DNA of 32,000 bases from an uncultured archaeon. GTDB lineage: Archaea > Iainarchaeota > Iainarchaeia > Iainarchaeales > CSSED10-239. Each line of letters starts with the position of its first letter. Position 1 is the first letter of the stretch. This document shows, one piece after another, positions 23 through 31,873 of this stretch. The notes under the pieces were generated by a model, which was not told the origin of the DNA, did no database searches, and saw nothing but the letters and a program-made list of their open reading frames with translations. The stretch covers positions 1 through 32,000 of the forward strand of contig CAZQEL010000007.1 in the NCBI GenBank assembly GCA_964591795.1. The letters are read 5' to 3'. The position numbers were made by a program, and so were the translations under genes.

Positions 23-481
23 TCATTTCACAATAAAATATACCTTTCTTCCTGCTTGTATTTTTTTTAAATATCCTTCTTTAACAAGTCTATTTAATCT
101 TTGAGAAGCTGCATTTGATCCTTTATACTTAAATTCAGTTTTTACTTTTTCAGCATCAACTTTTTGATTTGCTCTAATGAAAGAAATTATCTTATCGTCA
201 ATTTCTGGTAAAATATTAATTGTATCTGTATTAGTATCATGAGACTCAACTTTTTGTTTTAAAGCAAATTGTAAAGTATCATACTTTTCGTACAAATCTT
301 TTAATATCCCATTTGTTTTCTTTCTTTCTTCAATCAATTGATGTAAAATTACTGAAAGTATCAATGGATCTTTAAACTTCTCTTGAATTTGAATAAGATC
401 ACTCAAACCCAGTTCTTTAGAATCTTGTTTTAATAACTTGTCTAAAAATATCTGTTTTGTTAATGTGTCATTTTCAGTCAT
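23..481 (-). CDS. winged-helix (MarR/TrmB-like) DNA-binding protein, putative regulator
   Basis: 152-aa ORF. The C-terminal ~60 aa (IISFIRANQKVDAEKVKTEF...SNAASQRLNRLVKEGYLKKIQAGRKVYF) fits the helix-turn-helix-plus-wing pattern of archaeal wHTH regulators. The N-terminal half looks coiled-coil. Assignment by eye only. Confidence 0.5.
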   Translation of the reverse strand: MTENDTLTKQIFLDKLLKQDSKELGLSDLIQIQEKFKDPLILSVILHQLIEERKKTNGILKDLYEKYDTLQFALKQKVESHDTNTDTINILPEIDDKIISFIRANQKVDAEKVKTEFKYKGSNAASQRLNRLVKEGYLKKIQAGRKVYFIVK

Positions 482-753: not shown

Positions 754-2088
754 TCAACTTCTTGGGAAAAAACATGTTACACCAGGAGTAGGAGCTGGAT
801 AAACTATAGATATAGATTGAGTAGTTACAAGTCCAATAAGTCCAGGTGAATAACTAGTAATTTCTAAATTTAATATATCTCCAGCTGCGGGTATATAATT
901 AGGATTAATAGAAACTGAAATTGGATTAGATGTACCATTAAAACTACCACTTGAATTAAACACTTGATTATTTTCAAGACTTAGTTCATAATAACAAGAA
1001 CCTATACAATCTGCTTCAAAATTTCCAAAAAACTCCATAACACAGTAATCACTATTATGTGTTTCATTAAATGAAAAATTATCTATAACAGGAGAACAAC
1101 CACTTTTTGAAATTACATTATTATTATTCTTTTCAATAGTACTATATGTTCCAGATGTAGCTTGTGTTAATTCCACATTTAAATCATAATCATAATTATA
1201 TGAATTGGTAATACCAGCATTAAAATTAAATTCATAATTTGATGGATTTCCATTTATGTTTGCAGGAATAGTTTTATTTATAATTTCAAATAAATAACCA
1301 GAATAACTATTATTACCCAAAGTTATTTTTATTGTACAATTATCAATACCAGGAGTACCTTTACAAACAATACCATTAATTGTATGTGTTACATCTTTTA
1401 TACAACTATTAAATGGACTAGCAAAATTAGCTAAAGTACTAGCAGATGAAATAGTTGAAGAACTTAAATTTGAAGTTAATCCACAAATTGCTGTTTGTGA
1501 CCATTTTAATTTATTTGTTACTGAATCATATTGCAAATTAGCACCATCAATAGGACATTGACCTAAAGCTATAAGTATATCTAATTTATTAACAGAAACG
1601 GCATTATCTGCAATTTTAGGATTAGTTACTGCAAAACTACCTATTTTTTTATCAATTACAGCACCTGCAGCTAAATCATCTTGAGTTACTGCTTCATAAT
1701 CAATATTTTCAGTTAAAACTGAATTTAAACCAAGTTTACCATGAATTATAGAATAATCTTGAATTTTTGCTGATGAAATTGAATCATCTTGAAGATGAGA
1801 ATTATTAATAGTATCAATACTTATTTTACTACTTGTAATTGCACCATCTTGAATTTTTAAATTTGAAACTGCATTATTTTGTATTGCTGATGCACTTACA
1901 GAATTAGGATTTGCATGATTTGAATAATCTGCAACTATAGCACCATAATAAGGATTTGGTACAGGTATAATTACAGTAAATATCTCATCATCAAGTACTA
2001 TTGGTGGAGTAGGTGTTGATGCTGCAAAAACTACACCTGCAAAAACCACTATTGATAAAAATATTAAAAAAATATTTATAAATTTCAT
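754..2088 (-). CDS. secreted or surface repeat protein (hypothetical)
   Basis: The long ORF in the track starts at a TTG at 2103. The ATG at 2088 is preceded by GGAGGA at 7 nt and gives MKFINIFLIFLSIVVFAGVVFAAS, a signal peptide or N-terminal anchor. It is followed by about 10 degenerate copies of an I-x-D-x-A(V/I)-(T/S)-x-x-K-(I/L) motif (KIQDGAITSSKIS, LQDDSISSAKIQ, KIADNAVSVNKL). The C-terminal half is Cys/Asn/Ser-rich. Confidence 0.6.
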   Translation of the reverse strand: MKFINIFLIFLSIVVFAGVVFAASTPTPPIVLDDEIFTVIIPVPNPYYGAIVADYSNHANPNSVSASAIQNNAVSNLKIQDGAITSSKISIDTINNSHLQDDSISSAKIQDYSIIHGKLGLNSVLTENIDYEAVTQDDLAAGAVIDKKIGSFAVTNPKIADNAVSVNKLDILIALGQCPIDGANLQYDSVTNKLKWSQTAICGLTSNLSSSTISSASTLANFASPFNSCIKDVTHTINGIVCKGTPGIDNCTIKITLGNNSYSGYLFEIINKTIPANINGNPSNYEFNFNAGITNSYNYDYDLNVELTQATSGTYSTIEKNNNNVISKSGCSPVIDNFSFNETHNSDYCVMEFFGNFEADCIGSCYYELSLENNQVFNSSGSFNGTSNPISVSINPNYIPAAGDILNLEITSYSPGLIGLVTTQSISIVYPAPTPGVTCFFPRS

Positions 2089-2111
2089 TTTAATTTCCTC
2101 CAAGTATAAAT

Positions 2112-2525
2112 TTAATCACTACCATAAGTAGTTCCACCATCTACTACAACTGCATTATAATTATTAGTACATTGAGTAAGATTTGCATTAGAGATAACAC
2201 TTAATTTCATATCAATTGATTTACTAGTATAACCTACTAGATCTGAGGCAATTGGACCAACAAAAATACCTTGTGCTAAATTATCTTTAAATGTATCATA
2301 TAGAACACATGTAGATTTTCCAATAGGATAATTAGAACCGTTTGAAGTAACATATGCTAACAAAAAGAAATATCTATTACTAGGACTAGTAATATTAACA
2401 TCTCCAGTAATTTTGTACATTGTTGGTAAAGTTCTATCAGTTGGAAGTGCATGAACATTTAAACTAAAAACTACTAAAAACATAATTAAAAAAACTGTAA
2501 AAATACCTAAATTTCTAAATTTCAA
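2112..2525 (-). CDS. small secreted protein (hypothetical)
   Basis: 137-aa ORF with a TTG start preceded by AAGGTGA 5 nt upstream. N-terminal signal peptide (MKFRNLGIFTVFLIMFLVVFSLNVHA). Lies immediately upstream of, and co-oriented with, the 754-2088 surface protein. No recognisable domain. Confidence 0.5.
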   Translation of the reverse strand: MKFRNLGIFTVFLIMFLVVFSLNVHALPTDRTLPTMYKITGDVNITSPSNRYFFLLAYVTSNGSNYPIGKSTCVLYDTFKDNLAQGIFVGPIASDLVGYTSKSIDMKLSVISNANLTQCTNNYNAVVVDGGTTYGSD

Positions 2526-2607
2526 TTAAATCACCTTACTCTTTTTTAAAATTATAAAATACATATTAAGATATATTACCATAAAGTTTATAAATAATTC
2601 CTTTTAA

Positions 2608-3681
2608 TTAAAATAATCTAGATTCCCGTCTTGGAAGACGAAAACCCATTTTTTTTGTTTTTTCAAGTATACTTTGAACAATTAATTCTATTTCTTGTAA
2701 TTTAAGTCTACTTTGAAGATCAGCATCGATTAATGGAGCTGGATACACATATCTTTTATTAAATGAAGAAATAGATGCTATATTTGAAACTATAAAATCT
2801 GTATATTCTTTTAAAGAAAGTCCAAATTCCTTAAAATAAATAAATTCAATTCTTAAAGGAAAATCATCTTCTGAAAGTTTTAAGTAACAGACATAAAGAT
2901 TATTATAAATATCTGAATTAAAATCCTTTAAAACAGGATGTTCATTTAAACTATCAGAGTACTTAAAAACACAAGTTCTTTGATTTTTAGATAATAGAGA
3001 AAATACTAAAAATGAATCTGATAATGAAAAATCAATTTCATCTTTAAAAAAGTTATTTTTTAAAAAATTAAAAAATCTATCTCCACGTGAATCTTCAATA
3101 CAACCAACTAAAAACGTTTTATTTTTTTTAGATATATTATATAAAGAATTAAATAAACTTAAAAGTTTAAAATAATCCTTATAAAAAACAGATTCCTTTG
3201 TGGGTTTTGAAATATATTGTGGAATTATAGAACCATCAATTAACATAAAATCAAGAGATGGATTTTTTTCAATAATGTTTAAAGATAAAGAAAGTTCTTT
3301 TTTTAATCTTAAAATAGAAGTGTTCCAAATTATTTCTTCAATTTCTAAAGAACCAGTAGCAAGATAAGGTTTAGCTAAATTATAAACTTTAGGAAAATAT
3401 TTAACTGAAGATAATTTTGAATCTTTATAGTTAAAAATACAACCTGCTTCTTTTATAATAATTAAATTTGCAAAATTAAATTGTTTGTTAACAAATCCAG
3501 AATCAACACCTGCAAAACTTAAATTTTGATTTTTTTCAATAGCAACTGAATTAATAATATTTTCATATAAATTATAAGGATTAGAAAGTTGTGCATAGTT
3601 TTTAGTTTTAAAAATAGATACTGTTTTTTGATTTCTATCATAAACTTTTAAAAGTGTTTTAATTATGCTATCGTCTATCAT
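2608..3681 (-). CDS. nurA: NurA-like 5'-3' nuclease domain protein
   Basis: 357 aa. Acidic motifs sit at NurA-like positions (FAGVDSGF near the N-terminus, MLIDGSIIP mid-protein, CIEDSRGD), and a C-terminal YVYPAPLIDADLQSRL resembles the NurA YPxxLxxA(H/D) block. Size is typical of archaeal NurA. Needs profile confirmation. Confidence 0.55.
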   Translation of the reverse strand: MIDDSIIKTLLKVYDRNQKTVSIFKTKNYAQLSNPYNLYENIINSVAIEKNQNLSFAGVDSGFVNKQFNFANLIIIKEAGCIFNYKDSKLSSVKYFPKVYNLAKPYLATGSLEIEEIIWNTSILRLKKELSLSLNIIEKNPSLDFMLIDGSIIPQYISKPTKESVFYKDYFKLLSLFNSLYNISKKNKTFLVGCIEDSRGDRFFNFLKNNFFKDEIDFSLSDSFLVFSLLSKNQRTCVFKYSDSLNEHPVLKDFNSDIYNNLYVCYLKLSEDDFPLRIEFIYFKEFGLSLKEYTDFIVSNIASISSFNKRYVYPAPLIDADLQSRLKLQEIELIVQSILEKTKKMGFRLPRRESRLF

Positions 3682-3703
3682 AAAATTAATCCATTAAAAA
3701 AAA

Positions 3704-4624
3704 CTACATACTTTCAAGTTTTTTAATTCTTTCTTCAATTGGAGGATGAGTTGAAAACATTTTTGACAACCTATTTCCTCTAAAAGGATTTATAATATAA
3801 AGATGTGCAGTTCCTTTAGATGCTCCACTAACCGGAATATTAACACCAGAAATTTTTTTCAAAGCATTAGCAAGACCTTGTGGATATCTAGTTATTTTTG
3901 CACCTGATGCATCTGCTAAAAATTCTCTTTTTCTAGAAATAGACATTTTTATCATCATTGCAATTATTGGAGATAACACTACAAAGATTATAGCAATTAT
4001 TAAAATAACTGGATTTTTATTATTATTATTTCCTCCAGAAGCACCCCCAAAAAGAATTCCCCTAAAAGCAATATCTGACACCATCATAATAAGTCCAAAA
4101 AGAACTGTTGCAATAGTCATAACTTTAATATCTCTGTTTCTTATATGTGATAGTTCATGAGCAACAACACCTTCAAGTTCTTCTCTATTAAGTATTTCTA
4201 AAATACCAGAAGTTACAGCTATGGATGAATGTTTTGGACTTCTTCCTGTTGCAAAAGCATTAGGAGATTTATCTTGAATAATATACACTTTTGGTTTTGG
4301 AATTCCACTAGCAATTGAAAGTCCTTCAACTAAGTTATCTAAAAATTTATGTTTTGAATTTTTATCAGGTTCAATTAATTTAGCTCTAGAAGTTGCAAGA
4401 ACAATTTTATCTCCAGCATAATATCCTACCAATGCATAAACTATTGCAAAAACTCCTGCAATGAAAAGTATACCTACTCCAAAATCTGAAAAAATATATT
4501 GCAAAGCAAAGCCAACAAGCCCAATAAAAATAAAAAAACATAAAAATAAAATATATGTTTTAAAATTATTTGTTCTTATTTCACTATAAAAATTAGTTTT
4601 TAAATTATCCATATAAAATATCAC
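3704..4624 (-). CDS. htpX: HtpX-type M48 zinc metalloprotease, membrane-bound
   Basis: Two N-terminal TM segments. HEXXH motif in VAHELSHIRNRD, then two further TM segments. EFLADASGAKIT and a C-terminal THPPIEERI are both typical of HtpX/M48B. Confidence 0.85.
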   Translation of the reverse strand: MIFYMDNLKTNFYSEIRTNNFKTYILFLCFFIFIGLVGFALQYIFSDFGVGILFIAGVFAIVYALVGYYAGDKIVLATSRAKLIEPDKNSKHKFLDNLVEGLSIASGIPKPKVYIIQDKSPNAFATGRSPKHSSIAVTSGILEILNREELEGVVAHELSHIRNRDIKVMTIATVLFGLIMMVSDIAFRGILFGGASGGNNNNKNPVILIIAIIFVVLSPIIAMMIKMSISRKREFLADASGAKITRYPQGLANALKKISGVNIPVSGASKGTAHLYIINPFRGNRLSKMFSTHPPIEERIKKLESM

Positions 4625-5995: not shown

Positions 5996-6014
5996 AAAAA
6001 AAAAAAAAAAAAAA
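5996..6014 (-). terminator. poly-T tract (19 nt on the minus strand) directly after the lemA stop
   Basis: A19 on the plus strand abuts the lemA stop codon at 6015-6017. Oligo-T tracts act as archaeal intrinsic terminators. Confidence 0.45.
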
Positions 6015-6566
6015 CTAGAAAGAAACTTTAACGTTCTTTCTTTCTGAATCTGGAGCTTCAAAAAATATTTCTGATTTAAAATTAAACATATTTGCAAAAA
6101 TATTTGAAGGAAACATTTCAATTTTGTTATTATATATCATAACTGAATCGTTATAAAATTGTCTTGCATAAGCAATTTTACTTTCAATACCTGAAAGTTC
6201 TTCTTGAAGCATTAAAAAGTTTTGACTAGCCTTAAGATCAGGATAATTTTCAACAGCAATATTAAGTCCAGTTAATGCTTTTGAAAGTTCGTTATTTGCT
6301 TTAGCTTTCATTGTCATATCAGTTGCACTCATTGCTTGTGATCTTAATTGAGTAATTTTTGTAAATGTATCTTTTTCATGTATCATATAACCTTTTACAG
6401 TTTCAATTAAGTTTGGAACAAGATCGTATCTTTTTTTAAGTTGAACATCAATCTGACTCCAAGAGTTTTTAACTCTATTTCTTAATCTTATAAGACTGTT
6501 ATAGATTGTAAACACAATTATTAGAAGCACTACAACAATAATTAAAATTATTATACCAGTTGTCAT
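6015..6566 (-). CDS. lemA: LemA family membrane protein
   Basis: Single N-terminal TM segment, then [32 protein letters not shown]-type sequence and a C-terminal [25 protein letters not shown], both classic LemA blocks. GGGGGA lies 8 nt upstream of the ATG. Confidence 0.85.
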   Translation of the reverse strand: [183 protein letters not shown]

Positions 6567-6756
6567 AATTCATTCCCCCTTCTAGTATCTTATTATTAAC
6601 TTTATTATTTATAAAATAATATAAAACTATATTAATATATATAGATAAAAAGAAATAAAAAGAAATTGTTTTTATCCAAATTAAATTATTTTTTATCAAC
6701 ACAAAATAATTCAGAAATAAATGTTAAAAAAACAAAAAAAAAGAAAAAAAAGAAAA

Positions 6757-7002
6757 TTACTCCATATAACAATCTTCAGGACAATTTAGTGGATTTTCTC
6801 CATAGACATAATCACATCTTAAATCTCCACAATATGGTTTTACATTAACTATATTGTTATGAGATGCGAATTTATCCTCAGATTCTGTATAACTAACTGT
6901 ATTTTCTTTAATGTTTATAGATAAAAAGAAAACATTAAAAAATAAAAACACAATTGTTACAACTGAAATTAAAACCATTCCTTTCTGTCTCTTATTAGGC
7001 AT
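6757..7002 (-). CDS. small membrane-anchored Cys-rich protein (hypothetical)
   Basis: 81 aa. GGAGGA lies 6 nt upstream of the ATG. One N-terminal TM segment. The C-terminal CGDLRCDYVYGENPLNCPEDC is a four-Cys module of a type recurrent in archaeal secreted proteins. Confidence 0.5.
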   Translation of the reverse strand: MPNKRQKGMVLISVVTIVFLFFNVFFLSINIKENTVSYTESEDKFASHNNIVNVKPYCGDLRCDYVYGENPLNCPEDCYME

Positions 7003-7045
7003 ACTTATTCCTCCAATGTGTGAATCGTTTTTTTGAAAAGCGTTT

Positions 7046-7161
7046 AAATTGCAAGAAAAATTTTACGTAAGATGATTACTTTGCAATCTAAATTATGGTT
7101 TGCGAATAAAAAATTGCACGAAAATGTTTATTGTAAGATAATTAATTTGCAATTTAAAATT
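7046..7161. repeat. two ~50-bp direct repeats, each bounded by TTGCAA-type palindromes
   Basis: Unit A at 7046-7094 (aaattgcaagaaaaattttacgtaagatgattactttgcaatctaaatt). Unit B at 7111-7161 (aaattgcacgaaaatgtttattgtaagataattaatttgcaatttaaaatt). About 80% identical by eye. Confidence 0.8.
7067..7090. promoter_or_regulatory. 11-bp inverted repeat TTTCCAGAAAA-ct-TTTTCTAGAAA
   Basis: Arms at 7067-7077 and 7080-7090 are reverse complements with one mismatch. The repeat lies about 65-90 bp upstream of the 6757-7002 start. Its function is unknown. Confidence 0.4.
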
Positions 7162-7334: not shown

Positions 7335-9743
7335 TTACTTTTTAGAATTTTCTTTCTTTGCAACTAAAATTTTTGTTTTAATTAAAGTATCTGGATTTAA
7401 ACTCATAGAATCAATTCCAATTGATACTAAAAATTTAGCAAAATCAGGATAATCAGATGGAGCTTGTCCACAAATACCAATGTATTTACCTTTTCTTCTT
7501 GCAATTTTTACAACTTTTGTAATAAGTTCCTTAACAGCAGGATTTCTTTCATCATAAATACTTGCTACAATTTCTGAATTTCTATCAAGTCCTAAAGTTA
7601 ATTGAGTTAAATCATTTGTACCAATTGAAAATCCATCAAATACGTCCAAGAAATCTTCCGCTAATATTATATTTGAAGGAATCTCACACATACCAATTAC
7701 TTTAAGCCCTAAAAATCCTTGTCTTAAACCATTTTTCTTAAGTTCAAAAATAACTTTTTTAGCTTCTTCAACAGTTCTACAAAAAGGAATCATTATTTCA
7801 ATATTTGTAAAACCCATTTCTTCTCTTACTTTTTTAATTGCCTTACATTCTAATGCAAAACCTTCTCTATAATTTCCTTGATAATATCTTGAAGCACCAC
7901 GCCATCCTATCATTGGATTTGATTCTATTGGTTCATATTCTTTACCACCAATAAGATTCGCATATTCATCAGATTTAAAATCAGACATTCTTAAAATAAC
8001 TTTCTTTGGATAAAATGCAGCTGCAATTCTTGCAATTCCTTGTGATAATTTATCTACAAAATATTCTACTTTATTTTTATAACCTATAGTTAAACTATCA
8101 ATTTCATCTTTAACAGCTTTATCTTTTATTTTATTATAATTTATTAAAGCTAAAGGATGTATTTTTATCCAAGAATTAATAATAAATTCTTCTCTTGCAA
8201 GACCAACACCATCTGATGGTAAAAAAGATTGTTCAAAGGCTTGTTCAGGATTACCAATGTTTAACATTATTTTTGTTTTTGTAGTTGGTATTTTTTTAAT
8301 ATTATGTACATCTTTCTTAAATTTTAAAACTTTATCATAAACATATCCAAAATCTCCAGAAGAACAATCAATTGTAATCATTTGTTTATCTTTTATTTTT
8401 AAAGTTGCATCAATTGTTCCTACAACACAAGGAATACCAAGTTCTCTTGCAATTATTGCAGCATGACAAGTTTTACCACCTTTATTTGTCACAATACCCG
8501 ATGCTATTTTCATTATAGGCACCCAATCAGGATCTGTCATTTCAGTAATTAAAATATCACCTTTTGAAAAAGAATTAATATCTTTTACATCTTTAATTAT
8601 TGAGGTTTTACCAGTAGCTATTTTTTGACCAATTGAAATACCTTTTACAATAGGTTCTGTTTTTCCTAAAAGTGTATATGTTTCAATTTGATTTAAATTT
8701 TTATTAGACTGAACAGTTTCAGGTCTTGCTTGAACAATATATACTTTTTTATTAATACCATCAACAGCCCACTCCATATCCATTGGTTTATAGTGTCCAG
8801 CTTTTTCTGAATAATAATCTTCAATAACACAAGCCCATTTTGCTAAAGTTGTTGCATATTTATCATCAATACAATATTGATTTCTATGATTAATATCAAC
8901 ATTTACATTTTTAACCGATTTATTACCTTGAGTATCATAAATCATTTTAATTGATTTTTCACCAAGTCTTTTTGAAATTATTGCATTTTTACCTTGTCTT
9001 AAAGTTGGTTTAAATATAACAAATTCATCAGGATTAACTGCTCCTTGTACAATGTTTTCTCCAAGACCATAAGCACCATTAATTACAACAACATCTCTAA
9101 AACCTGTTTCAGTATCAATTGAAAACATAACCCCTGAAGCTGCTAAATCACTTCTAACCATTTTTTGAACAACAATTGAAAGTGCAACTTTAGTATGACT
9201 AAATTTTTTTTCAACTCTATAAGCTATTGCTCTATTAGTAAAAAGAGATGCAAAACATTTCCTACATGCTTGAATTAAATCTTCAGGCCCTCTTATGTTT
9301 AAATAAGTTTCTTGTTGTCCTGCAAAAGAAGCATCAGGTAAATCTTCTGCTGTTGCGGATGATCTTACAGCAACATCAAGTTCTTTTGTTTTTTCTGATT
9401 TTGAAAGAGTATAATAGGCTTCAATGATTTCTTTTTCTAAATCATGTGGTATTTCTGCAATTCTAATTAATTTTCTTATTTTTGCACCTTTTTGAGAAAG
9501 TGCTTCTAAATCATTAATATTTAAATTTTTTAAAATATTATCTATTTTTTTAATAATTTCATCTTTTTGTAAAAGATATCTATAAGCATGAGCAGTAATT
9601 GCAAAACCATTAGGTATTTTCACACCTTTTTTAGTTAAATTTCTGTACATTTCACCTAAAGATGCATTTTTTCCACCAACTATAGGAACATCTTCAATTG
9701 CTATTTCATTAAACCACAAAATAAATTTATTTTCTCTTTTCAT
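7335..9743 (-). CDS. ppsA: phosphoenolpyruvate synthase (pyruvate, water dikinase)
   Basis: 802 aa. N-terminal ATP-grasp PEP/pyruvate-binding region (VGGKNASLGEM), phosphohistidine swivel domain (GGKTCHAAIIARELGIPCVVG), C-terminal PEP-utilising TIM barrel (GFSIGTNDLTQL). Confidence 0.95.
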   Translation of the reverse strand: MKRENKFILWFNEIAIEDVPIVGGKNASLGEMYRNLTKKGVKIPNGFAITAHAYRYLLQKDEIIKKIDNILKNLNINDLEALSQKGAKIRKLIRIAEIPHDLEKEIIEAYYTLSKSEKTKELDVAVRSSATAEDLPDASFAGQQETYLNIRGPEDLIQACRKCFASLFTNRAIAYRVEKKFSHTKVALSIVVQKMVRSDLAASGVMFSIDTETGFRDVVVINGAYGLGENIVQGAVNPDEFVIFKPTLRQGKNAIISKRLGEKSIKMIYDTQGNKSVKNVNVDINHRNQYCIDDKYATTLAKWACVIEDYYSEKAGHYKPMDMEWAVDGINKKVYIVQARPETVQSNKNLNQIETYTLLGKTEPIVKGISIGQKIATGKTSIIKDVKDINSFSKGDILITEMTDPDWVPIMKIASGIVTNKGGKTCHAAIIARELGIPCVVGTIDATLKIKDKQMITIDCSSGDFGYVYDKVLKFKKDVHNIKKIPTTKTKIMLNIGNPEQAFEQSFLPSDGVGLAREEFIINSWIKIHPLALINYNKIKDKAVKDEIDSLTIGYKNKVEYFVDKLSQGIARIAAAFYPKKVILRMSDFKSDEYANLIGGKEYEPIESNPMIGWRGASRYYQGNYREGFALECKAIKKVREEMGFTNIEIMIPFCRTVEEAKKVIFELKKNGLRQGFLGLKVIGMCEIPSNIILAEDFLDVFDGFSIGTNDLTQLTLGLDRNSEIVASIYDERNPAVKELITKVVKIARRKGKYIGICGQAPSDYPDFAKFLVSIGIDSMSLNPDTLIKTKILVAKKENSKK

Positions 9744-10103
9744 ATATTAATCACAATCTATTTATTATTTTACAATATTAGTTAACCTAACTATTTTTAT
9801 AGTTATCTTGCACTTAAATCACTGCCATTATCGTCGTCTCCAAATTGACCATTAAATCCACTAAATTCTAAACTTCCATCAAATTAAAAACTACCAAATC
9901 TTATATTTAAATTATTTAAAATAAATTTATTAGATTCTATATTTATTTTTATAAAACTGCTTAATACCATTTTTCAAAAACATTTACAACACCATTAAAA
10001 TTTAAATTATAAATTATTTTTATTTAAAAAATATTAAAATATTTTACCTAAAATAATGATAACATTAATAATAATAATTAAAATAATATAAAATATATCT
10101 TTT

Positions 10104-10970
10104 TCATAAATATTCGTCATTTATAATTTCTTTTAATAAATCAATAACTTGTAAAAAAGAACCATCATTAACAATTACAATATCAAAAGTATTTTTGTAA
10201 ATTTCTAATTTATGTTCAATATCTGAATTTAAAAAACCTATTGAAAGAATAACTTTATTATTTAAGCCATCAACCATTTTCACATCTTCAAGAGAATCTC
10301 CTATAACAATTACATTTTTCCTCTCTTTTATTTGATTATAATAAGAATTATTTTTTAATTCAAATTCATTTTTATTAAGTATATGTATTGTTTTATCTTT
10401 ATAATTTGGTTTTGCATAACCATTTTGATCCCAATCAAAGAAATTAGAAACAATCTCTATATTTGAAAATAACAAATTTTCTTTGTTTAAAACAGAAATT
10501 ATAAAATCACCTATTCCTGAAGAAAATATAAGTAAAGGAATTTTTTTGTCAAAAAGAAATTTAAAAAAAATATCAACCCTTTCTCTTAATTCCATATTGG
10601 ATTTAATAATAATTTCTGAAACTATATTTTTATTCATTTTTGATTCTGAAATTAATTTTATGTGCTTTTCCCACCATTCTTTCATTTTTTCTTTCTTTTC
10701 TTCAAAAGGAATTGAAATATCAACCTCTATTGAATGATATTTATCATAAAGTGCATACGATTTTTGAGGATAATTATCTTCAAGATAACCACCATCTCTT
10801 ATTAAAGAAATTGCAGATTTAAATTTGCCAGTTTTAGTATATTCTTTATTTAATGTTTTATCAAAATCAGAAACAACATGAAGATGATTAATTCCATCTT
10901 TTTTAATTAGATCCAATTTTTCTTTTAATAAATCTCTATTTTTAATAAAAACATCTTTTAATAACTTCAT
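10104..10970 (-). CDS. HAD-superfamily hydrolase, pyrimidine 5'-nucleotidase (UMPH-1 / cytosolic 5'-nucleotidase III) family
   Basis: HAD motif I VVSDFDKTL, motif II-like LLIFSSGIGDFI, motif IV VIGDSLEDVKMVDG. A large cap sits between motifs I and II. Spacing and wording match the NT5C3/UMPH-1 family as recalled from memory. Confidence 0.65.
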   Translation of the reverse strand: MKLLKDVFIKNRDLLKEKLDLIKKDGINHLHVVSDFDKTLNKEYTKTGKFKSAISLIRDGGYLEDNYPQKSYALYDKYHSIEVDISIPFEEKKEKMKEWWEKHIKLISESKMNKNIVSEIIIKSNMELRERVDIFFKFLFDKKIPLLIFSSGIGDFIISVLNKENLLFSNIEIVSNFFDWDQNGYAKPNYKDKTIHILNKNEFELKNNSYYNQIKERKNVIVIGDSLEDVKMVDGLNNKVILSIGFLNSDIEHKLEIYKNTFDIVIVNDGSFLQVIDLLKEIINDEYL

Positions 10971-14226: not shown

Positions 14227-14324
14227 TTTTACAATTATTCTTTGTTTTAAAAACTCTTTTTCTTTTCTATTTTTTTATTATTAAAAACAAAGTATTTTTA
14301 AATTAAATTCATAACTATACTATT

Positions 14325-15005
14325 ATGGTTAAAATAGATAACTATTATAGAGTAGTTGCATCAACTTTTGGAATTGCTTATATCATAGGTATAATTATTG
14401 CTTTAATATATGCCTATAGAGGAGAAATAATAGTTCAAACAGGAAGTAGTTTTATACAAAATCTATCTTTAACAAATTCAATTTATTTTAAACAAACGAT
14501 GTATGAGATATTTAATAATGCCACAGATTTATTTTTAGTGCCTTTTGCATATTTAGTTGCAGCAATCCAATTTTCATATATGCATGTAAATTTACTTACA
14601 TCTTCATTTTTAGGTCAAGTTAAACTACTAGTACAATTAATTCCACAATTTTTATTTTTTATAACATATATTATTTCAGCAACTTTAGGAATTAAAGTAC
14701 TTTTATTAATAGTTAAAACTTTTATAAATAGCTTTATAATAAAAGAAAATAAATATAAAATTAAAGAGCAATTTTTTACAAAAGAAGATATTAAACTTTT
14801 TTATATTGGTTTATCCACAATTGTTATTGGAGCAACAATTCAAACACATTTAATTAAAGTTTTATTTATTTTCTTTGTTAATTTAAAATCAATTGCCTAT
14901 ATTTTAATTGCTCTTGTATATCTTTTGATAATAATATTATCTGGATACATTACAATTAAAACAATTAACAATTATTTAAAAAAATATAAGAAAGAAAAAT
15001 TATGA
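14325..15005 (+). CDS. polytopic membrane protein (hypothetical), translationally coupled to the downstream ATPase
   Basis: 226 aa with about 5-6 hydrophobic segments. The stop overlaps the next start (ATGA at 15002-15005). There is a weak, unverified resemblance to SpoIIM/DUF95-type membrane proteins (EIFNNATDLF...). Confidence 0.6.
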   Translation: MVKIDNYYRVVASTFGIAYIIGIIIALIYAYRGEIIVQTGSSFIQNLSLTNSIYFKQTMYEIFNNATDLFLVPFAYLVAAIQFSYMHVNLLTSSFLGQVKLLVQLIPQFLFFITYIISATLGIKVLLLIVKTFINSFIIKENKYKIKEQFFTKEDIKLFYIGLSTIVIGATIQTHLIKVLFIFFVNLKSIAYILIALVYLLIIILSGYITIKTINNYLKKYKKEKL

Positions 15006-16297
15006 GTTTAGATTTTACAGAAAATATTGTTGTTGGAAGACGGCAAAACGATCTTAAAAAATACAAAGAAAAAGCAACAGGTTATATTGGAAAAGTTGTT
15101 GTTTCTGGTGGAGATAATCCAATTTTAGGAAAAAAAGTGCTAATGGATCTTTCAAGATCACATGTAATGATTATTTGTGGTAAACGTGGTGGAGGAAAAT
15201 CATACACACTATCTGTTGTAATGGAAGAATTTGCAAAACAACCATTTGAAATAAAGGACAGACTATCTGTAATTGTAATAGATACTGTTGGTATTTTTTG
15301 GACCATGAAATACCCAAATAAAGAAGTACCACAAAAAGTTTTAGATAAATGGAATTTAACTCCAGAAGGAATAAAAATTAGAAATTTAATACCTTTTGGA
15401 AAAAAAGAATTTTACACAGAAAAAGAAATTCCTTTTGATGCTCCTTTTTCAATAAGAACTTCTCAAGTTGATTTAGAAGATTGGTTAGCTTTATTTAGAC
15501 TTACTTGGAGAGATCCTGAATCATCTTTACTTTCAAGAACCATTGAAAATTTAAAATTAAAACTTGGTAATTTATATGATATTGATGATATTATTACTCT
15601 TTCAAAAAAAGATATTGAAACAACAAAAGAGACTATTGATTCATTAACTAACAGATTAAGAGTTGCAAAAACATGGGGCCTTTTTTCAAAATCAGGAACT
15701 ACCATGAAAGAGTTTGCAAAATCAGGAACAATAACAACTATTGATGTATCAACCTACAAACAAGCAATAGGTATGGAATCTGTCCAAGAATTAATTGTTG
15801 GTCTTTTAGGTAAAAAGTTATATGAAGAGAGAATGCTTTACAGAAAAGAAGAAGAAAAAAGTCTTCTTGAAGGTAAAAATAAAACCAGTGAAATGCCAAT
15901 TGTTTGGATGGTTATTGATGAAGCACACATGTTTATGCCACAAGACAGACCAAGTATGGCATTAGATGTTTTATTACAATGGATAAGAGTAGGTAGACAA
16001 CCAGGACTTTCATTAATTCTTGCAACTCAAAGACCAAATAAACTTCACTCAGAAACAATATCTCAATGTGATTTATTTTTAAGTATGAGAATGACTGCTC
16101 AAGAAGATATTCAAGCAGTTTCATCAATAAGACCTAGTTACTTACATGTACCTATGGATAAATACTATGCACAAATGCCTAAAGAACAAGGTTATGCAAT
16201 AATGATTGATGATAACTCAGAAAAAGTAATGCTTTTAAAAATCAGACCTAGAACAACATGGGATGGTGGAAAAACAGCTAATGTTTTCTCAGATTAA
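15002..16297 (+). CDS. HerA/FtsK-superfamily (DUF87-type) P-loop ATPase lacking an N-terminal HAS barrel
   Basis: Walker A CGKRGGGKSYT and Walker B VWMVIDEAHMF. GRQPGLSLILATQRPNKLHSETISQCDLFLSMRMT is the HerA-like sensor/arginine-finger block. C-terminal RPRTTWDGG. Only ~55 aa precede Walker A. Confidence 0.75.
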   Translation: MSLDFTENIVVGRRQNDLKKYKEKATGYIGKVVVSGGDNPILGKKVLMDLSRSHVMIICGKRGGGKSYTLSVVMEEFAKQPFEIKDRLSVIVIDTVGIFWTMKYPNKEVPQKVLDKWNLTPEGIKIRNLIPFGKKEFYTEKEIPFDAPFSIRTSQVDLEDWLALFRLTWRDPESSLLSRTIENLKLKLGNLYDIDDIITLSKKDIETTKETIDSLTNRLRVAKTWGLFSKSGTTMKEFAKSGTITTIDVSTYKQAIGMESVQELIVGLLGKKLYEERMLYRKEEEKSLLEGKNKTSEMPIVWMVIDEAHMFMPQDRPSMALDVLLQWIRVGRQPGLSLILATQRPNKLHSETISQCDLFLSMRMTAQEDIQAVSSIRPSYLHVPMDKYYAQMPKEQGYAIMIDDNSEKVMLLKIRPRTTWDGGKTANVFSD

Positions 16298-18265: not shown

Positions 18266-18883
18266 TTATATTTCTGAATTTTCATTTTTAGTTGGTTTTT
18301 TTTGTTTAATTAGCTCTGAATCAATACCATCTCCAACATCATCATCTTTAGTTTCATCTAAATCAAAAGAAGAATCATTGTTATTTTCATCAGAATTAAA
18401 ATCATCTCCATCATCAAAATCATCTTCTACAAAATCATCAAGTGATTCACTATTATCTGTATCAGATTTTAAATCATCTGAATTATACTCAGAATCATCA
18501 ATATCTTCTTCTAATTCATTAGCTTTTTTCAACCCTAAAATATTTGTAGATATATTTTTTTGATTTGAATAAGATGTAAAATATACAATTAAAAAAAATC
18601 CAGCTATAAAATAAAATGCAATTTTATAAAAAATATTTAAATTAATATCCATAAATAAACGAACAAATAAAACAATAGAAAAAAATAACTCTAGTTTTGA
18701 CAAATATCTTTTTTGTTTAAATAACTCAAAAAAGTTTATTTTAATAAATGCTAAAAAAGAAAGAGAAATAAAAATTAAACTTAAAGTTTCATTATCATAA
18801 AAAATAAAAGAAAATAAAGTAGATATAAATAAAATATATGATGCGAATTTTCTAAACAATAAAACTATTTTATTCATATGCAT
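18266..18883 (-). CDS. membrane protein with a highly acidic C-terminal tail (hypothetical)
   Basis: 205 aa. About four N-terminal TM segments, then ~90 aa dominated by D/E/S/N (EEDIDDSEYNSDDLKSDTDNSESLDDFVEDDFDDGDDFNSDENNNDSSFDLDETKDDDVGDG). Confidence 0.5.
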   Translation of the reverse strand: MHMNKIVLLFRKFASYILFISTLFSFIFYDNETLSLIFISLSFLAFIKINFFELFKQKRYLSKLELFFSIVLFVRLFMDINLNIFYKIAFYFIAGFFLIVYFTSYSNQKNISTNILGLKKANELEEDIDDSEYNSDDLKSDTDNSESLDDFVEDDFDDGDDFNSDENNNDSSFDLDETKDDDVGDGIDSELIKQKKPTKNENSEI

Positions 18884-22492: not shown

Positions 22493-23426
22493 TTAAAAAT
22501 CAATACTAACGTACCTCTCAAATCTATCTGGAAATAACATCAGATAATTACCAACCTCCTTATTTTGAATATATCTTTTTACAATAGAATAAACTGCACC
22601 AGAACTAATCCCAACTAATAAACCATTATTTCTAATAAGCTCCTTTGTAGATTCATAAGCTTCTTTAGTATATGCAGTTTCTATTTTATCAAAGTATTTT
22701 GTAGTATAAATCTTAGGAACTATAGCTTCAGACATATTTTTTAAACCAAATATCTTATGACCAATCTCTGGTTCTACAGCAATTGTTTTTATATTTGGAT
22801 TATATTCTTTAATTGCTTTTGATAAACCAACAGCAGTTCCAGAAGTACCTAATCCTACAAATAAATGGGTTAAGTTAGGTAATTGAGCAATTATTTCTTT
22901 TGATGTTTGATAATAATGAGTCAAAGTATTAATTTTATTAGAAAATTGACTTGGTAGAAAATATTTATCTGGATCTTTTGCATAAATTTCTTGTAATAAT
23001 TTTATAGACCCATCAGTACCTTGATTACCTTGACTTAAAATTAAATTAACCCCTAAAAGCTCAAGTATCTTTTTTCTTTCAAAACTAACATTTTTACTTA
23101 AAACAATATCGATTGAATACCCTTTTACAGCTGCAACCATTGCAAGCCCAATAGCAGTATTACCAGAACTAGCTTCAAGTATAATTTTATTTTTATTTAA
23201 AAGTCCTTCTCTTTCAGCAGATTCAATAATATTATATGCAATTCTATCTTTTATTGATCCACCTACATTAAATCCTTCTAATTTAGCAAATAAATTTATA
23301 TTATTTGAAGTTAAGTTAAGATTTAATAAAGGAGTTTTACCAATTAAATCAAAAATTGTATTAACAGGGTGAAAAATAACCTTCGGTCTTATTAAAAGTA
23401 TATTTTTTTAAAAAATCTATATTCAT
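22493..23426 (-). CDS. cysteine synthase / CBS-family PLP-dependent enzyme, 5' end frameshifted (possible pseudogene or homopolymer assembly error)
   Basis: The track ORF (22493-23140) begins mid-domain. The same frame stays open upstream to 23407 and encodes IGKTPLLNL...GGSIKDRIAYNII...EASSGNTAIGLA, which holds the PLP-lysine and SSGNT motifs but no ATG, GTG or TTG. An ATG at 23426 with GGAGGA 7 nt upstream is in a different frame and stops after 21 codons. The frames meet at a T6A7 run. Confidence 0.8.
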
Positions 23427-23626
23427 ATTTATTCCTCCATATAATTAGATTTTTGATAACAAATGATTTACAAGTATAATTAACAGAAACAGAAATAGAA
23501 ACAAAGTTTTACTAAATTACTTGAAATCATAAATATATATAACACAACAAATATATAAACTTATTTAAAAATATTTAACATTTCTAATTATACAAAATAG
23601 CTTTAATAATACAATTTATATTATTT

Positions 23627-24262
23627 ATGATTAACATATCTATTAAAATAATACACATAAAAATGATAAATATGATAATTAAAAAAACAAAATTTAATTT
23701 AAAACATGAGACTAAAAAACATACTTTAAGAAAATTTATATTAGTTTTATTAATATTGATAGCATATCTTACAATTACTTCTATAAAATTAGGTTTTAAA
23801 GAAGGAATTTCAATAACACTATTAACATGGTCCTTTTTTGTTTTTTGTACACCAGTTGCTGATGCCGGATTTTTAATAGATTTTCCAATTAGATTAATCA
23901 CAAGATTTAGAATGGTTTATTCTGAGATGATAGTATGGAGTATTGCAGTAATTATAAATTTAATTTATTTTATTACAAATTCTCAAATATATAATAGTAC
24001 AATAATATTAGCTTTATTTAAACAAATTTTAACTAATCCATGGCCATATTGGATAATAATAATATTATCAGGACTTGGTACTTTCTTATCAATTATCTTT
24101 GCTGATGAATTAATGGATGTTTCAAAACACCATGAAAGAAAAAAATATCATAAACATATAAGTAAATATCAATTAATTATTTTTGCATTTATAATAATTA
24201 TAATTATTGTAATATATTATTTTTTAATAAAACAATTAGGACTTAGTATTCCTTTAATATAA
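23627..24262 (+). CDS. polytopic membrane protein (hypothetical)
   Basis: 211-aa ORF with about 5 hydrophobic segments and a HHERKKYHKH loop. The start is uncertain (ATGs at 23627, 23660 and 23669). No recognisable family. Confidence 0.5.
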   Translation: MINISIKIIHIKMINMIIKKTKFNLKHETKKHTLRKFILVLLILIAYLTITSIKLGFKEGISITLLTWSFFVFCTPVADAGFLIDFPIRLITRFRMVYSEMIVWSIAVIINLIYFITNSQIYNSTIILALFKQILTNPWPYWIIIILSGLGTFLSIIFADELMDVSKHHERKKYHKHISKYQLIIFAFIIIIIIVIYYFLIKQLGLSIPLI

Positions 24263-29324: not shown

Positions 29325-30209
29325 TTAAGATAAAAACTTATTAATAATTTCATCATTTATTTTTTTAAAAATTAATTTGTATTTCTCATCATATTCTACA
29401 ATAGGAATCTTATTTACCATTGCTTTAACAAAAGATTTATCAAAAGGAATTTTGGAAATTATTAAAATATTATTTTGTTTTGCAAATAATTCTATTTTAT
29501 CACAATATTTTTTATTTAAATCAAATTTATTAATAATTATTGAATATTTAATGTTAAAATGATTTACTATATCAATGGCTCTTAACATATCTTCATATCC
29601 AGCAATAGTTGGTTCAGTAATTAATAAAGCATAATCATTTCCAGTTACTGATGCTATAACTGGACATCCAATGCCTGCTGCAGAATCAATAATCATAATT
29701 TCTGCATTAGGTTCTATATCTTTTGCTTTTTTTCTAACTTCTGCAACTACTTTTCCAGATCCTGAACTACTTGAAAGTAATTGAGCAGAAGCAATTTTAA
29801 AATTATACTTTGTTTTAGCATATCCAATCTGTGCATTATTTACATTTTTAAGAGTAATTGCTTTATTTGGACAAACAAGCTCACACACTCCACATCCTTC
29901 ACAACTAAATTCTTTTAAAACTGGATAATTATTTTTAAAATCTAATGCATCAAAATAACAAGAATCTACACATTTTTTACAACCATTACATTTACTTTTA
30001 TCAATTATTGCTATTTGATTTGTTGATAAATAACTCCATTGTTCATAATCTTCTGGATATATTGAAAATAAAATTGATAAATTAGATCCATCTACATCAC
30101 AATCAGCACAAACTATTTTTTTATGTTCTGACATAGTAATAGCTAAAGATGCGACAATACTACTTTTACCAACTCCTCCTTTTCCTGATAACACAACTAA
30201 AGATTTCAT
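29325..30209 (-). CDS. MinD/ParA-superfamily P-loop ATPase with inserted 2x[4Fe-4S] ferredoxin domain (COG1149-like)
   Basis: Deviant Walker A LSGKGGVGKSS and DCDVDGSN. Inserted CNGCKKCVDSC and CEGCGVCELVCP. Walker B-like IIDSAAGIGCPV. Confidence 0.8.
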   Translation of the reverse strand: MKSLVVLSGKGGVGKSSIVASLAITMSEHKKIVCADCDVDGSNLSILFSIYPEDYEQWSYLSTNQIAIIDKSKCNGCKKCVDSCYFDALDFKNNYPVLKEFSCEGCGVCELVCPNKAITLKNVNNAQIGYAKTKYNFKIASAQLLSSSSGSGKVVAEVRKKAKDIEPNAEIMIIDSAAGIGCPVIASVTGNDYALLITEPTIAGYEDMLRAIDIVNHFNIKYSIIINKFDLNKKYCDKIELFAKQNNILIISKIPFDKSFVKAMVNKIPIVEYDEKYKLIFKKINDEIINKFLS

Positions 30210-30218
30210 ATTTTCCCT

Positions 30219-31067
30219 TTATTTTTTAAAATCGTCAAATATTGATAAAATATTTGAAATAATTATTGGTTTTCCTTCTGTATATGAATTAATAATTTCT
30301 TTAAAAAATTTAATTTCTAAAATAATATTAACATTATATTTATTTGCTAAAGATTCAATTTCTTTTTTTTCTCCAAAATCTGAACGATTAATAATAATAG
30401 ATCCTTTTTTATTTAATTTATTTAATAAATTTAAAATTATATTTAAATCATGAGCACCCAATGGTGTTGGTTCTGTAACTGTAATTATTTTATCAGCATA
30501 TTTTAATGCTGCAATAACAGGGCAATGAGATCCTGCCGCAGTATCAATAATAATGTAATCATAAAAAAATTTCATCTTTAATAATTCTTTATTTAAATTA
30601 TTTACTATAAACTCAGAAACTGGTTGATTTGTTTTTAGTTCACCAGATAATAAATCTAAATTATCTTTTTTACCTTTATATAAATGTCCAATTTCTTTTA
30701 ATTTCCAACTAATTGCATCAAACTTACAACTTATTTTACATGCTCCACAGCCATTACATTGCTCTGGTAAAAATATAGGATATTTATCTTTAATAAAAAC
30801 AATTGCATTATTTTTACATACTTTTGAACAAACACCACATTTTTCACATTTACTTAAATCAAAATTAGCTATTCTTTGTTCTATTTTTTTTAAATGTTCT
30901 TTTTTGATATTTAATAATAAATGATCATTAGGACAATCAACATCTGCATCTATCAATAAAACTTTGTTTTTTTTAGATAATTCATAGGCTAAAGCAGTTG
31001 CAACAGTTGATTTTCCTGTTCCACCTTTTCCACCAGTTACAGCAATAATCACAATTAATGTCCACAA
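30219..31067 (-). CDS. MinD/ParA-superfamily P-loop ATPase with inserted 2x[4Fe-4S] ferredoxin domain (COG1149-like), paralog
   Basis: VTGGKGGTGKST and DADVDCPN. Inserted CEKCGVCSKVC and CNGCGACKISC. IIDTAAGSHCPV. The track start is the TTG at 31067. A GTG at 31052, 2 nt after the upstream stop, gives a more typical MIIAVTGGKGG N-terminus. Confidence 0.8.
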   Translation of the reverse strand: MWTLIVIIAVTGGKGGTGKSTVATALAYELSKKNKVLLIDADVDCPNDHLLLNIKKEHLKKIEQRIANFDLSKCEKCGVCSKVCKNNAIVFIKDKYPIFLPEQCNGCGACKISCKFDAISWKLKEIGHLYKGKKDNLDLLSGELKTNQPVSEFIVNNLNKELLKMKFFYDYIIIDTAAGSHCPVIAALKYADKIITVTEPTPLGAHDLNIILNLLNKLNKKGSIIINRSDFGEKKEIESLANKYNVNIILEIKFFKEIINSYTEGKPIIISNILSIFDDFKK

Positions 31068-31873
31068 CTTTCTTTTAAATTAATAATATTATATAAATTA
31101 TCTATTACCTTGTTAATGGTATCATAATTACCTGTCTTTAAAGAAATATTATTTTCTTTTGCTTCTTTTATTGCTCTATCACCTATATCTCTTGCAAAAA
31201 TTGTAGTTATATTAAAAGCATCACAAATTTGAGCAATTGGACTTTTATTTGCATTTGTATGATCTAAATTATTTGGCACTATTTTTAAATCTTTTTTATT
31301 TACATTATATATTCCAAAAAAAGGAGCATGACCAAAATGCAAACTTATTTTTGACAATAATCCCTCATTATTTAATAATGGTAAAAATATTTTTTCTTCT
31401 TTATTATTTATTTTATTTTCTTTAAAAGCTTCTACTTTAGTAAATTCTACTTTAAGATCTTCTACTTTAGAATCTTCTACTTTAGAATCTTCTACTTTAG
31501 AATCTTCTACTTTAAGATCTTCTACTTTAGGAACTTCTACTTTATTATTAAACGAAATATTTAATATTTCATTTAAAGCATCTTTTGCAACACCAGATTT
31601 AGAATATACTTTAATTTTTAATTTATTTAAAATTGTTTCTGCATTTGGACCAACTGTACCAGTAATCAATGTATCTACATTTAAATTACCTAATTGTTCT
31701 GCAGCTTTTATACCAGCTCCATGTGCTTCTTGAATACATGTATTTGATATTGCTTGTGTATTGATTATTTTATTATTTTCTACATCTATAATTAAAAAAT
31801 ATTTACATCTTCCAAATCTTTGATCAATTAAAGAATCTAAATTTTCTTTGTCACAGGTTATCGCTATTTTCAT
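31055..31873 (-). CDS. tandem fusion of two NifX/NifB-C-terminal-like (Nitro_FeMo-Co, COG1433) domains joined by a KVEDx repeat linker
   Basis: Domain 1: MKIAITCD...IDQRFGRCKYFLIIDVEN...AHGAGIKAAEQL...DTLITGTVGPNA. Domain 2: ISLHFGHAPFFGIYNV...IFARDIGDRAIKEAKENNI. GAGGTGA lies 5 nt upstream of the ATG. Confidence 0.75.
   Translation of the reverse strand: MKIAITCDKENLDSLIDQRFGRCKYFLIIDVENNKIINTQAISNTCIQEAHGAGIKAAEQLGNLNVDTLITGTVGPNAETILNKLKIKVYSKSGVAKDALNEILNISFNNKVEVPKVEDLKVEDSKVEDSKVEDSKVEDLKVEFTKVEAFKENKINNKEEKIFLPLLNNEGLLSKISLHFGHAPFFGIYNVNKKDLKIVPNNLDHTNANKSPIAQICDAFNITTIFARDIGDRAIKEAKENNISLKTGNYDTINKVIDNLYNIINLKESCGH
31428..31547 (-). repeat. 8 x 15-bp in-frame tandem repeat encoding (K-V-E-D/x-x)8
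   Basis: Plus-strand units of tcttctactttagaa. The three central copies (31458-31502) are identical and the outer copies diverge. Encodes KVEVP KVEDL KVEDS KVEDS KVEDS KVEDL KVEFT KVEAF. Confidence 0.9.

Follow-up and report, generated by a model that had tools for sequence, protein, structure and literature searches.

A HAS-barrel-less HerA-type ATPase widespread in DPANN archaea and its clade-limited membrane neighbour

A membrane protein gene and a HerA-type ATPase gene overlap in an Iainarchaeota genome

We analysed 32,000 nucleotides (nt) of DNA from an uncultured archaeon of the Iainarchaeota (contig CAZQEL010000007.1, positions 1 to 32,000; hereafter the window), concentrating on two consecutive forward-strand genes. 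The first, c8, encodes a small membrane protein, and the second encodes a P-loop ATPase of the HerA/FtsK superfamily that lacks the N-terminal HAS barrel of canonical HerA. The initial annotation, made from the sequence alone, had proposed that the pair might mark a membrane-anchored translocation or defence module. We find that the two genes have very different histories: the ATPase is widespread in DPANN archaea, and c8 is confined to one small clade. The features of the window to which we refer are as follows.

14325..15005, forward strand: membrane protein gene c8; 226 residues, about six transmembrane (TM) helices; orphan family found only in the Forterrea-like clade of Iainarchaeota
15002..16297, forward strand: HAS-barrel-less HerA/FtsK-superfamily P-loop ATPase gene; 431 residues; member of a DPANN-wide orthologous group of ~430 residues
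15176..15208, forward strand: Walker A motif (P-loop), CGKRGGGKSYT; residues 59-69; invariant columns; K66/S67 is an intein site in many homologs
15902..15934, forward strand: Walker B motif, VWMVIDEAHMF; residues 301-311; D306, E307, A308 and H309 invariant
16013..16045, forward strand: LILATQRPNKL block, the FtsK/HerA-type 'QRP' motif after the sensor strand; residues 338-348; L338, L340, A341, T342, Q343 and R344 invariant
14293..14304, forward strand: TATA-like AT run tatttttaaatt; ~25 nt 5' of the c8 ATG, preceded by T-runs after rpl44e; read from the sequence
23..481, reverse strand: c1 ortholog, a coiled-coil plus winged-helix protein of 152 residues; 46% identical to cluster c1; 14.5 kb from the ATPase gene
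2608-3681, reverse strand: nurA; 11 kb from the ATPase gene

The ATPase start codon (ATG, 15002-15004) overlaps the c8 stop codon (TGA, 15003-15005) in a 4-nt ATGA that can be read directly. By itself this overlap is weak evidence, because genes in these genomes are often closely spaced: of same-strand neighbour pairs, 27% are no more than 15 nt apart and 15% overlap. A TATA-like element 5' of position 14325 would yield a leaderless transcript carrying c8 and the ATPase gene, with the qualification that such matches are expected by chance in DNA of 21% GC; the window as a whole has a G+C content of ~24%. The genes around the pair are ordinary (XPD helicase; rpl44e, encoding ribosomal protein L44e; a major facilitator superfamily (MFS) transporter; two tRNAs; FKBP; a DEAD-box helicase), and an Rfam scan of the window returned the two tRNAs and nothing else. 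No integrase, transposase, pilin or other secretion genes were found near the pair.

The ATPase belongs to the HerA/DUF87 branch

The ATPase is a member of the HerA/DUF87 part of the FtsK-HerA superfamily, as had been read from its motifs. Pfam DUF87, the HerA central domain, matches with E 5e-9 and 36.9 bits (gathering cut-off 23.2), and FtsK_SpoIIIE scores 23.7 bits, just below its cut-off of 24. Walker A, Walker B and the LILATQRP block are invariant across 29 homologs, and the QRP block aligns with the SQRP/ASQRP block of solved HerA structures. Three arginines conserved in the same 29 homologs (R329, R332 and R344) are arginine-finger candidates. PADLOC HerA models and mad8 match with E values of 4e-21 to 3e-14; mad8 spans residues 43-375, and most of the NCBIfam and PADLOC HerA models cover the C-terminal half of the protein only. 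VirB4 models of NCBIfam match over a stretch of ~50 residues only, and no hydrophobic (TM) segment was found in the ATPase.

An AlphaFold2 (AF2) model of the monomer, built on the 29 homologs (predicted local distance difference test, pLDDT, 87), consists of three short strands before the P-loop strand, the ATPase core and a helical insertion, with nothing further. Foldseek searches of this model against the PDB gave HerA hexamers as the top matches (9x1m, E 1e-20; also 4d2i and 7wrw), with E values of 1e-20 to 1e-16 and sources that include Thermococcus, Sulfolobus, Deinococcus and SIR2-HerA systems. At the structural level, viral packaging ATPases match less well (E 1e-7 to 1e-4) than does cellular HerA. 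Because the best fold matches are HerA hexamers, the mechanism of a ring DNA translocase is expected, and by analogy the ATPase would be a ring hexamer that pumps double-stranded DNA.

The ATPase is a paralog of canonical HerA

Membership of the HerA branch does not make the ATPase a repair HerA. Its scores against the NCBIfam HerA equivalogs lie between 33 and 55 bits, compared to cut-offs of 800-970 (NF040819, 44.8 bits against 970; NF040937, 32.9 bits against 800). Another Diapherotrites genome (locus L094) carries a 512-residue DUF87 HerA (9350-10888) with nurA (6001-7101) 2.2 kb upstream; small genes, including those for a PIN protein and a HAD hydrolase, fill the interval. This longer protein aligns with Sulfolobus HerA (4d2i) over residues 24-476 (E 4e-31) and matches the NCBIfam HerA models with E 1e-44. 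Its identity to the window ATPase is 26%, over the C-terminal half only, and it aligns to the whole 431-residue family from its own residue ~120 onward. Because the alignment starts there, the ~120 N-terminal residues that form the HAS barrel are missing from the ATPase, in which 58 residues precede Walker A; the absence of the barrel, the two open reading frames (ORFs), their ATGA overlap and the motifs are all as annotated. The presence of a separate HerA near nurA in L094 means that the phylum has canonical HerA plus a shorter paralog, and the 431-residue ATPase is that paralog of NurA-linked HerA, not a version of canonical HerA itself.

The gene neighbourhoods agree. No NurA homolog was found in any of ~90 ATPase loci, and across ~100 loci retrieved the gene of the 431-residue type never adjoins nurA. 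As had been noted, the window holds neither mre11 nor rad50, and its NurA-like gene lies far from the pair on the other strand; we found no second HerA within the 32 kb either. The window nurA is flanked by genes for secreted proteins and an M48 peptidase, with no ATPase gene beside it.

The ATPase is conserved across DPANN and repeatedly invaded by inteins

A word-indexed search returned more than 2,300 homologs of the ATPase, the top 120 of which are ~431 residues long and 54-100% identical; where a source is named within these 120, it is Diapherotrites, Iainarchaeum or 'archaeon'. Scanning GTDB species genomes gave at least 567 loci. Those listed come mostly from Iainarchaeota and show 50-60% identity; of the organisms with a name, Ca. 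Forterrea multitransposorum is closest (87% identity). In an exhaustive HMMER search of 1.84 billion cluster representatives, 209 clusters (50% identity) were hit at E<1e-30. Length is constant within the group at ~431 residues, and the mean column identity is 72%. Orthologs of ~430 residues and ~40% identity are present in Aenigmarchaeota, Nanoarchaeia and 'DPANN group' genomes; those of Aenigmarchaeota and Nanoarchaeia sit amid ribosomal, translation, RFC and proteasome genes and have no membrane partner. A literature search found no paper describing this ~430-residue HAS-less subfamily. The group is vertically inherited, widespread in DPANN and uncharacterised.

Inteins usually occupy conserved active-site motifs of essential information-processing proteins. 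About 24 of 87 ATPase loci have a P-loop intein between K66 and S67, and its junction (GGGK/C...HN/SYT) can be read in L022, P0175 and P0172. In some distant homologs a second site lies after E307 of Walker B, as judged from split alignments at residue ~308 and HN/CH junctions in P0172, P0175 and P0177. Intein-bearing homologs occur among L005-L010, L015-L024 and L073-L090, and many of the inteins have LAGLIDADG domains; none is present in the window allele. Since the gene complement of DPANN archaea is so small, a motor that is retained in nearly every Iainarchaeota genome and has attracted inteins to both of its catalytic motifs probably matters for the handling of chromosomes. The ~430-residue DPANN branch looks like a housekeeping ATPase; other branches of its relatives, described below, do not.

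c8 is a genuine but young gene, always directly upstream of the ATPase gene

The 226-residue protein was annotated as having 5-6 TM segments and no known catalytic motif. Hydropathy and an all-helical AF2 model (pLDDT 83) bear this out, with hydrophobic helices at residues ~12-32, 69-91, 98-120, 121-140, 158-180 and 186-212, and searches against Pfam, NCBIfam, PADLOC and PHROGs gave no match. No fold match was found in the PDB by Foldseek either (best E 1.8); the TolQ and type IV secretion system (T4SS) chains in the list, such as an R388 T4SS chain (E 4.6, template modelling (TM)-score 0.13), are noise, nothing lying below E 1.8. A resemblance to divergent SpoIIM/DUF95 proteins via an 'IFNN' motif was considered and discarded: the family as a whole does not keep this motif, and none of 21 members matches SpoIIM/DUF95 or any consistent Pfam family at E values up to 10. 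The family is small, with 22 homologs among 5.8 billion database proteins and 20 further loci from a profile-pattern scan of Joint Genome Institute (JGI) metagenomes. Both its length and a motif, H..LLTSSFLGQ.KLLV..P, are conserved, and the ratio of nonsynonymous to synonymous substitution rates (dN/dS) is ~0.08-0.30. c8 is a real gene under purifying selection.

In every c8 locus that extends past the c8 stop codon, from genomes and metagenomes alike, the ATPase gene follows directly, at a spacing of -11 to +15 nt; among the 20 metagenome loci it does so in 18, and the remaining two end at a contig edge. c8 was found nowhere other than in this position. The adjacency is kept where the genes upstream and downstream differ (L012-L014, L015, L016 and L023), and it holds even as c8 identity falls to 33-38%, with the linked ATPases remaining at 66-88%. 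At L005/L006, a four-gene cluster of three radical-SAM genes and PqqD, together with a 44-residue ORF, occupies 1430-4567 between rpl44e and c8; this cluster may be of the ribosomally synthesised and post-translationally modified peptide (RiPP) type.

The distribution of c8 is as narrow as its linkage is strict. In a neighbour-joining tree of the C-extein region, all 15 ATPases whose gene is preceded by c8 group together to the exclusion of the others, and the sister of this clade, L022, has no c8: there rpl44e is followed by 406 nt and then the ATPase gene. This spacer of L022 contains an antisense ORF of 107 residues of the CxxCxxCC type (6178-6501, reverse strand). Some 60 other Iainarchaeota loci, with ATPases at most 63% identical, have no consistent membrane neighbour. 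The block XPD-rpl44e-c8-ATPase-MFS is syntenic across much of the Forterrea-like clade. c8 is a young gene: it appeared 3' of rpl44e in the common ancestor of that clade and has kept its place immediately 5' of the ATPase gene since. Within the clade the pairing does not look accidental, and the membrane ORF is a strictly conserved neighbour in these genomes; the pairing does not extend beyond this one small lineage. Because the ATPase is conserved in dozens of genomes, and in L022, without c8, its core function cannot depend on c8, and we infer that c8 was not part of the ancestral ATPase machine. c8 is best regarded as a late acquisition of one clade, and not as the mark of a new translocation or defence system of wide occurrence.

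A winged-helix protein is the usual neighbour in Iainarchaeota

Outside the c8 clade, other genes accompany the ATPase. In ~40 loci, c1, which encodes a coiled-coil and winged-helix protein of ~160 residues, lies on the same strand within three genes upstream; in most Iainarchaeota outside the clade it immediately precedes the ATPase gene. A second gene, c9 (a coiled coil of ~156 residues), is divergent and upstream of the ATPase gene across a spacer of 27-88 nt, and c4 (~225 residues) is convergent and downstream. Both c9 and c4 recur beside the ATPase gene in L004, L027, L038-L040, L090 and others, and both are outside this window. Profile searches against PDB sequences gave weak winged helix-turn-helix (wHTH) matches for c1 and nothing for c4, and a search of c9 against Pfam only gave nothing significant. 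That c1 is a neighbour in Iainarchaeota and that a wHTH is fused to the ATPase in distant relatives suggest a functional link between the c1 protein and the ATPase.

These distant relatives are longer archaeal proteins (33-38% identity) from Diapherotrites, Theionarchaea and Promethearchaeota, in which the ATPase is fused to a C-terminal TrmB/MarR-type wHTH, SAP or DUF835 domain; one has an N-terminal subtilase. In L097, the Diapherotrites fusion gene and the end of a gene for a Hel308-type helicase overlap, with Orc1/Cdc6 and SepF nearby. All sequence and fold relatives of the ATPase are DNA pumps, and because the contexts of the relatives all point there (wHTH and SAP fusions, the wHTH neighbour, XPD at the present locus, Hel308 and Orc1/Cdc6 in L097), DNA is the expected substrate. 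Two further relatives, 33-36% identical over nearly the full length, lie in defence loci: one on a Haloplanus plasmid (L098, NZ_CP098519), with a BrxC-like ATPase and a GNAT protein, and one on a Helarchaeota contig (L092), with a phosphodiesterase-family protein and a PAPS reductase. Both loci match the HerA/FtsK 'BREX-related capture' (BRC) system (PMC12839542).

Two other possible connections were followed and dropped. SepF, PRC-barrel or Orc1/Cdc6 genes occur at most a few kb from the genes of ATPase relatives in Aenigmarchaeota (L091, 1484-1810), Diapherotrites (fusion form; L097, 10110-10466 and 8857-10041), Nanoarchaeia (L093, 4430-4690) and Theionarchaea (L096, 8715-9017). A link to cell division was rejected, SepF/PRC-barrel genes being found only at these four non-core loci and, by BLAST, in none of ~80 Iainarchaeota loci nor in the window. 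An origin from a virus or plasmid was likewise set aside: a tblastn search of 50,697 phage records found no homolog of the ATPase, and the plasmid matches are distant, the best being the haloarchaeal defence locus.

Other features of the window

Directly downstream of nurA, positions 754-2525 (reverse strand) encode two proteins of 449 and 137 residues with TTG starts and N-terminal signal or anchor segments, neither of which has a Pfam match. The region 18266-18883 (reverse strand) encodes a four-TM protein (cluster c24) whose long tail is very acidic and rich in Asp, Glu and Ser; this protein is conserved beside the MFS transporter downstream of the ATPase gene in several related genomes. 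A 215-residue ORF with a PALP domain (22493-23140, reverse strand) is matched by its Pfam profile only from position 72, and an unannotated ORF of 105 residues lies upstream on the same strand (23584-23901); together they may be a truncated or split gene for a pyridoxal phosphate (PLP) enzyme. Finally, 29325-31873 (reverse strand) contains a tandem pair of MinD/ParA-type P-loop genes in which 4Fe-4S ferredoxin domains are embedded, and a Nitro_FeMo-Co family gene lies upstream on the same strand, overlapping the nearer of the two by 13 nt.

A housekeeping DNA translocase with a clade-specific accessory is the favoured interpretation

The reading that we favour, with a probability of roughly 0.55, is that the ATPase is a core motor, a ring that translocates DNA in a housekeeping role, to which a membrane accessory has been added in one clade, and that the pair is not a defence system. 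The ring would pump double-stranded DNA in a chromosome process such as segregation, resolution or repair, probably working with the coiled-coil/winged-helix DNA-binding protein c1. In the Forterrea-like clade, c8 and the ATPase gene would be co-transcribed, and c8 would be an accessory that most plausibly tethers or regulates the motor at the membrane. Several points weigh against this. Ring formation, the DNA substrate and the cellular role are predicted from homology and gene context. The gene order of c1, c9, c4 and the ATPase is conserved within one phylum and may reflect shared ancestry rather than function. In addition, the cytoplasmic parts of c8, as predicted by the positive-inside rule, are tiny (a loop of ~17 residues at 141-157 and a tail of ~14 residues), which would leave little surface for docking of a hexamer.

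An unlikely alternative is that the pair forms a dedicated membrane translocation module, in which c8 is a channel or anchor with the ATPase hexamer docked onto it, moving DNA or another polymer across the membrane in the manner of FtsK/SpoIIIE or Ced, perhaps for the scavenging of DNA or nucleotides in a symbiont. Such a module would make sense of the adjacency at every c8 locus, of the selection acting on c8 and of the DNA-pumping relatives of the ATPase; Ced provides a precedent (PMC11868833), and Forterrea is described as a symbiont centred on nucleotide metabolism (PMC5905446). However, ATPases that are 50-60% identical occur in dozens of genomes with no membrane neighbour, L022 included, and c8 has no fold likeness to VirB6/CedA or to any solved channel. 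No Ced model matches, there are no pilin or secretion genes nearby, and the ATPase itself has neither a TM helix nor a VirB4-like N-domain. As a general module the pair does not hold up, c8 being restricted to one clade and the loci of L022, ~60 other Iainarchaeota, Aenigmarchaeota and Nanoarchaeia having no membrane partner; a dedicated channel is conceivable for the Forterrea-like clade only.

We also doubt that c8 and the ATPase gene are functionally unrelated neighbours, c8 having been inserted or having arisen in the spacer that separates rpl44e from the ATPase gene, within a genome that is compact and AT-rich, and having been kept there because the clade is young. The frequency of tight spacing and overlap in these genomes is in keeping with this, rpl44e already precedes the ATPase gene in c8-less L022, and the whole block is syntenic in much of the clade. 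Yet the adjacency has outlasted rearrangement of the flanks (L005/L006, L012-L014, L015, L016 and L023), it persists between c8 proteins that are only 33-38% identical, and c8 never occurs elsewhere.

More speculative, and to our minds quite improbable, is a bolder version in which the ~430-residue HAS-less paralog would do in DPANN what FtsK does elsewhere, as a core chromosome-pumping motor that takes its direction from the separate wHTH protein and is provided with a six-TM anchor in the Forterrea-like clade to give a three-gene pump like FtsK/SpoIIIE, or else a minimal gate for DNA uptake or export in a symbiont. It is very unlikely that the ATPase is a trimmed repair HerA that works together with the orphan NurA (2608-3681). 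The solitary nurA and the HerA-NurA complexes among the best fold matches would be in keeping with such a partnership, but in published HerA-NurA structures the HAS barrel is the face of HerA that is bound by NurA, and the ATPase lacks it; a distinct, canonical HerA is encoded near nurA in the phylum, and given the absence of NurA homologs from all ~90 ATPase loci we reject the partnership. An anti-phage or anti-plasmid defence system driven by the ATPase is the least credible reading, since the PADLOC HerA and mad8 matches and the relatives in BRC-type loci (Haloplanus plasmid, Helarchaeota) that favour it are countered by the restriction of most of those matches to the shared C-terminal half, by the lack of an adjoining effector (SIR2, nuclease, PglZ or BrxC) here and in ~100 related loci, by the lack of integrase or transposase genes and phage matches, and by a gene that is widespread, slowly evolving and syntenic with housekeeping genes.

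For the specialist, the interest of the favoured interpretation lies in a conserved, intein-laden core ATPase; its putative coupling to the membrane is narrow.

Comparison with known systems

Among known systems, canonical archaeal HerA, the helicase of HerA-NurA end resection (4d2i, 9x1m), is closest in structure. It shares with the ATPase the RecA-like core with a helical insertion, the Walker A and B motifs and the QRP block, and provides the best fold matches (E 1e-20 to 1e-17; TM-scores 0.6-0.67, normalised to the query). It differs in having the HAS barrel of ~120 N-terminal residues and in its linkage to nurA, mre11 and rad50, both of which are lacking for the window ATPase, and its equivalog cut-offs are far above the scores obtained here. 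Viral packaging ATPases (STIV B204, PRD1 P9 and A32-like proteins) have the 'additional strand, conserved E' (ASCE) core in common with the ATPase, at low significance (E 0.3; E 1e-7 to 1e-4), and a PHROG 'terminase' family matches with E 3e-15; the window ATPase is twice as long, however, and no capsid or other viral genes lie nearby.

The HerA proteins of BRC and other defence systems (PMC12839542; SIR2-HerA, DUF4297-HerA and mad8) include the closest non-DPANN relatives that sit in a recognisable gene system, and association with a wHTH is a theme of the HerA/FtsK BRC systems (PMC12839542). By contrast, the window locus has no PglZ, BrxC-like, STAND, GNAT or nuclease partner, and the ATPase gene is single, syntenic and vertically inherited. 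The crenarchaeal Ced DNA import system (CedA/CedE with CedB/CedD; PMC11868833, PMC9905601), in which VirB6-like CedA is combined with HerA-clade CedB/CedD (PMC11868833), resembles the pair in joining a 5-6-TM membrane protein to a HerA-clade ATPase that moves DNA across a membrane. It differs in that the window ATPase has no VirB4-like N-domain or TM segment, that there are no CedA1/A2 pilin genes and that the c8 fold is not VirB6-like. None of the NCBIfam Ced models matched c8 or the ATPase at E<0.1; the CedD model did match the canonical HerA of L094.

FtsK/SpoIIIE offers the most suggestive parallel in organisation. The anchor, motor and winged-helix gamma domain of FtsK are mirrored by the separate c8, ATPase and c1 genes, and some relatives of the ATPase are fusions of a motor to a wHTH. 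The LILATQRP motif is also common to the ATPase and FtsK. In FtsK/SpoIIIE, however, the TM and gamma domains are fused to the motor, which is not so in the window ATPase; c8 is present in one clade only, and there is no sign of a cell-division link in Iainarchaeota. The ATPase is clearly a member of the superfamily and falls outside canonical HerA, FtsK, Ced/VirB4 and defence HerA alike. The ~430-residue protein is a concrete candidate for a long-standing question, namely which motor carries out FtsK-like DNA pumping in archaea.

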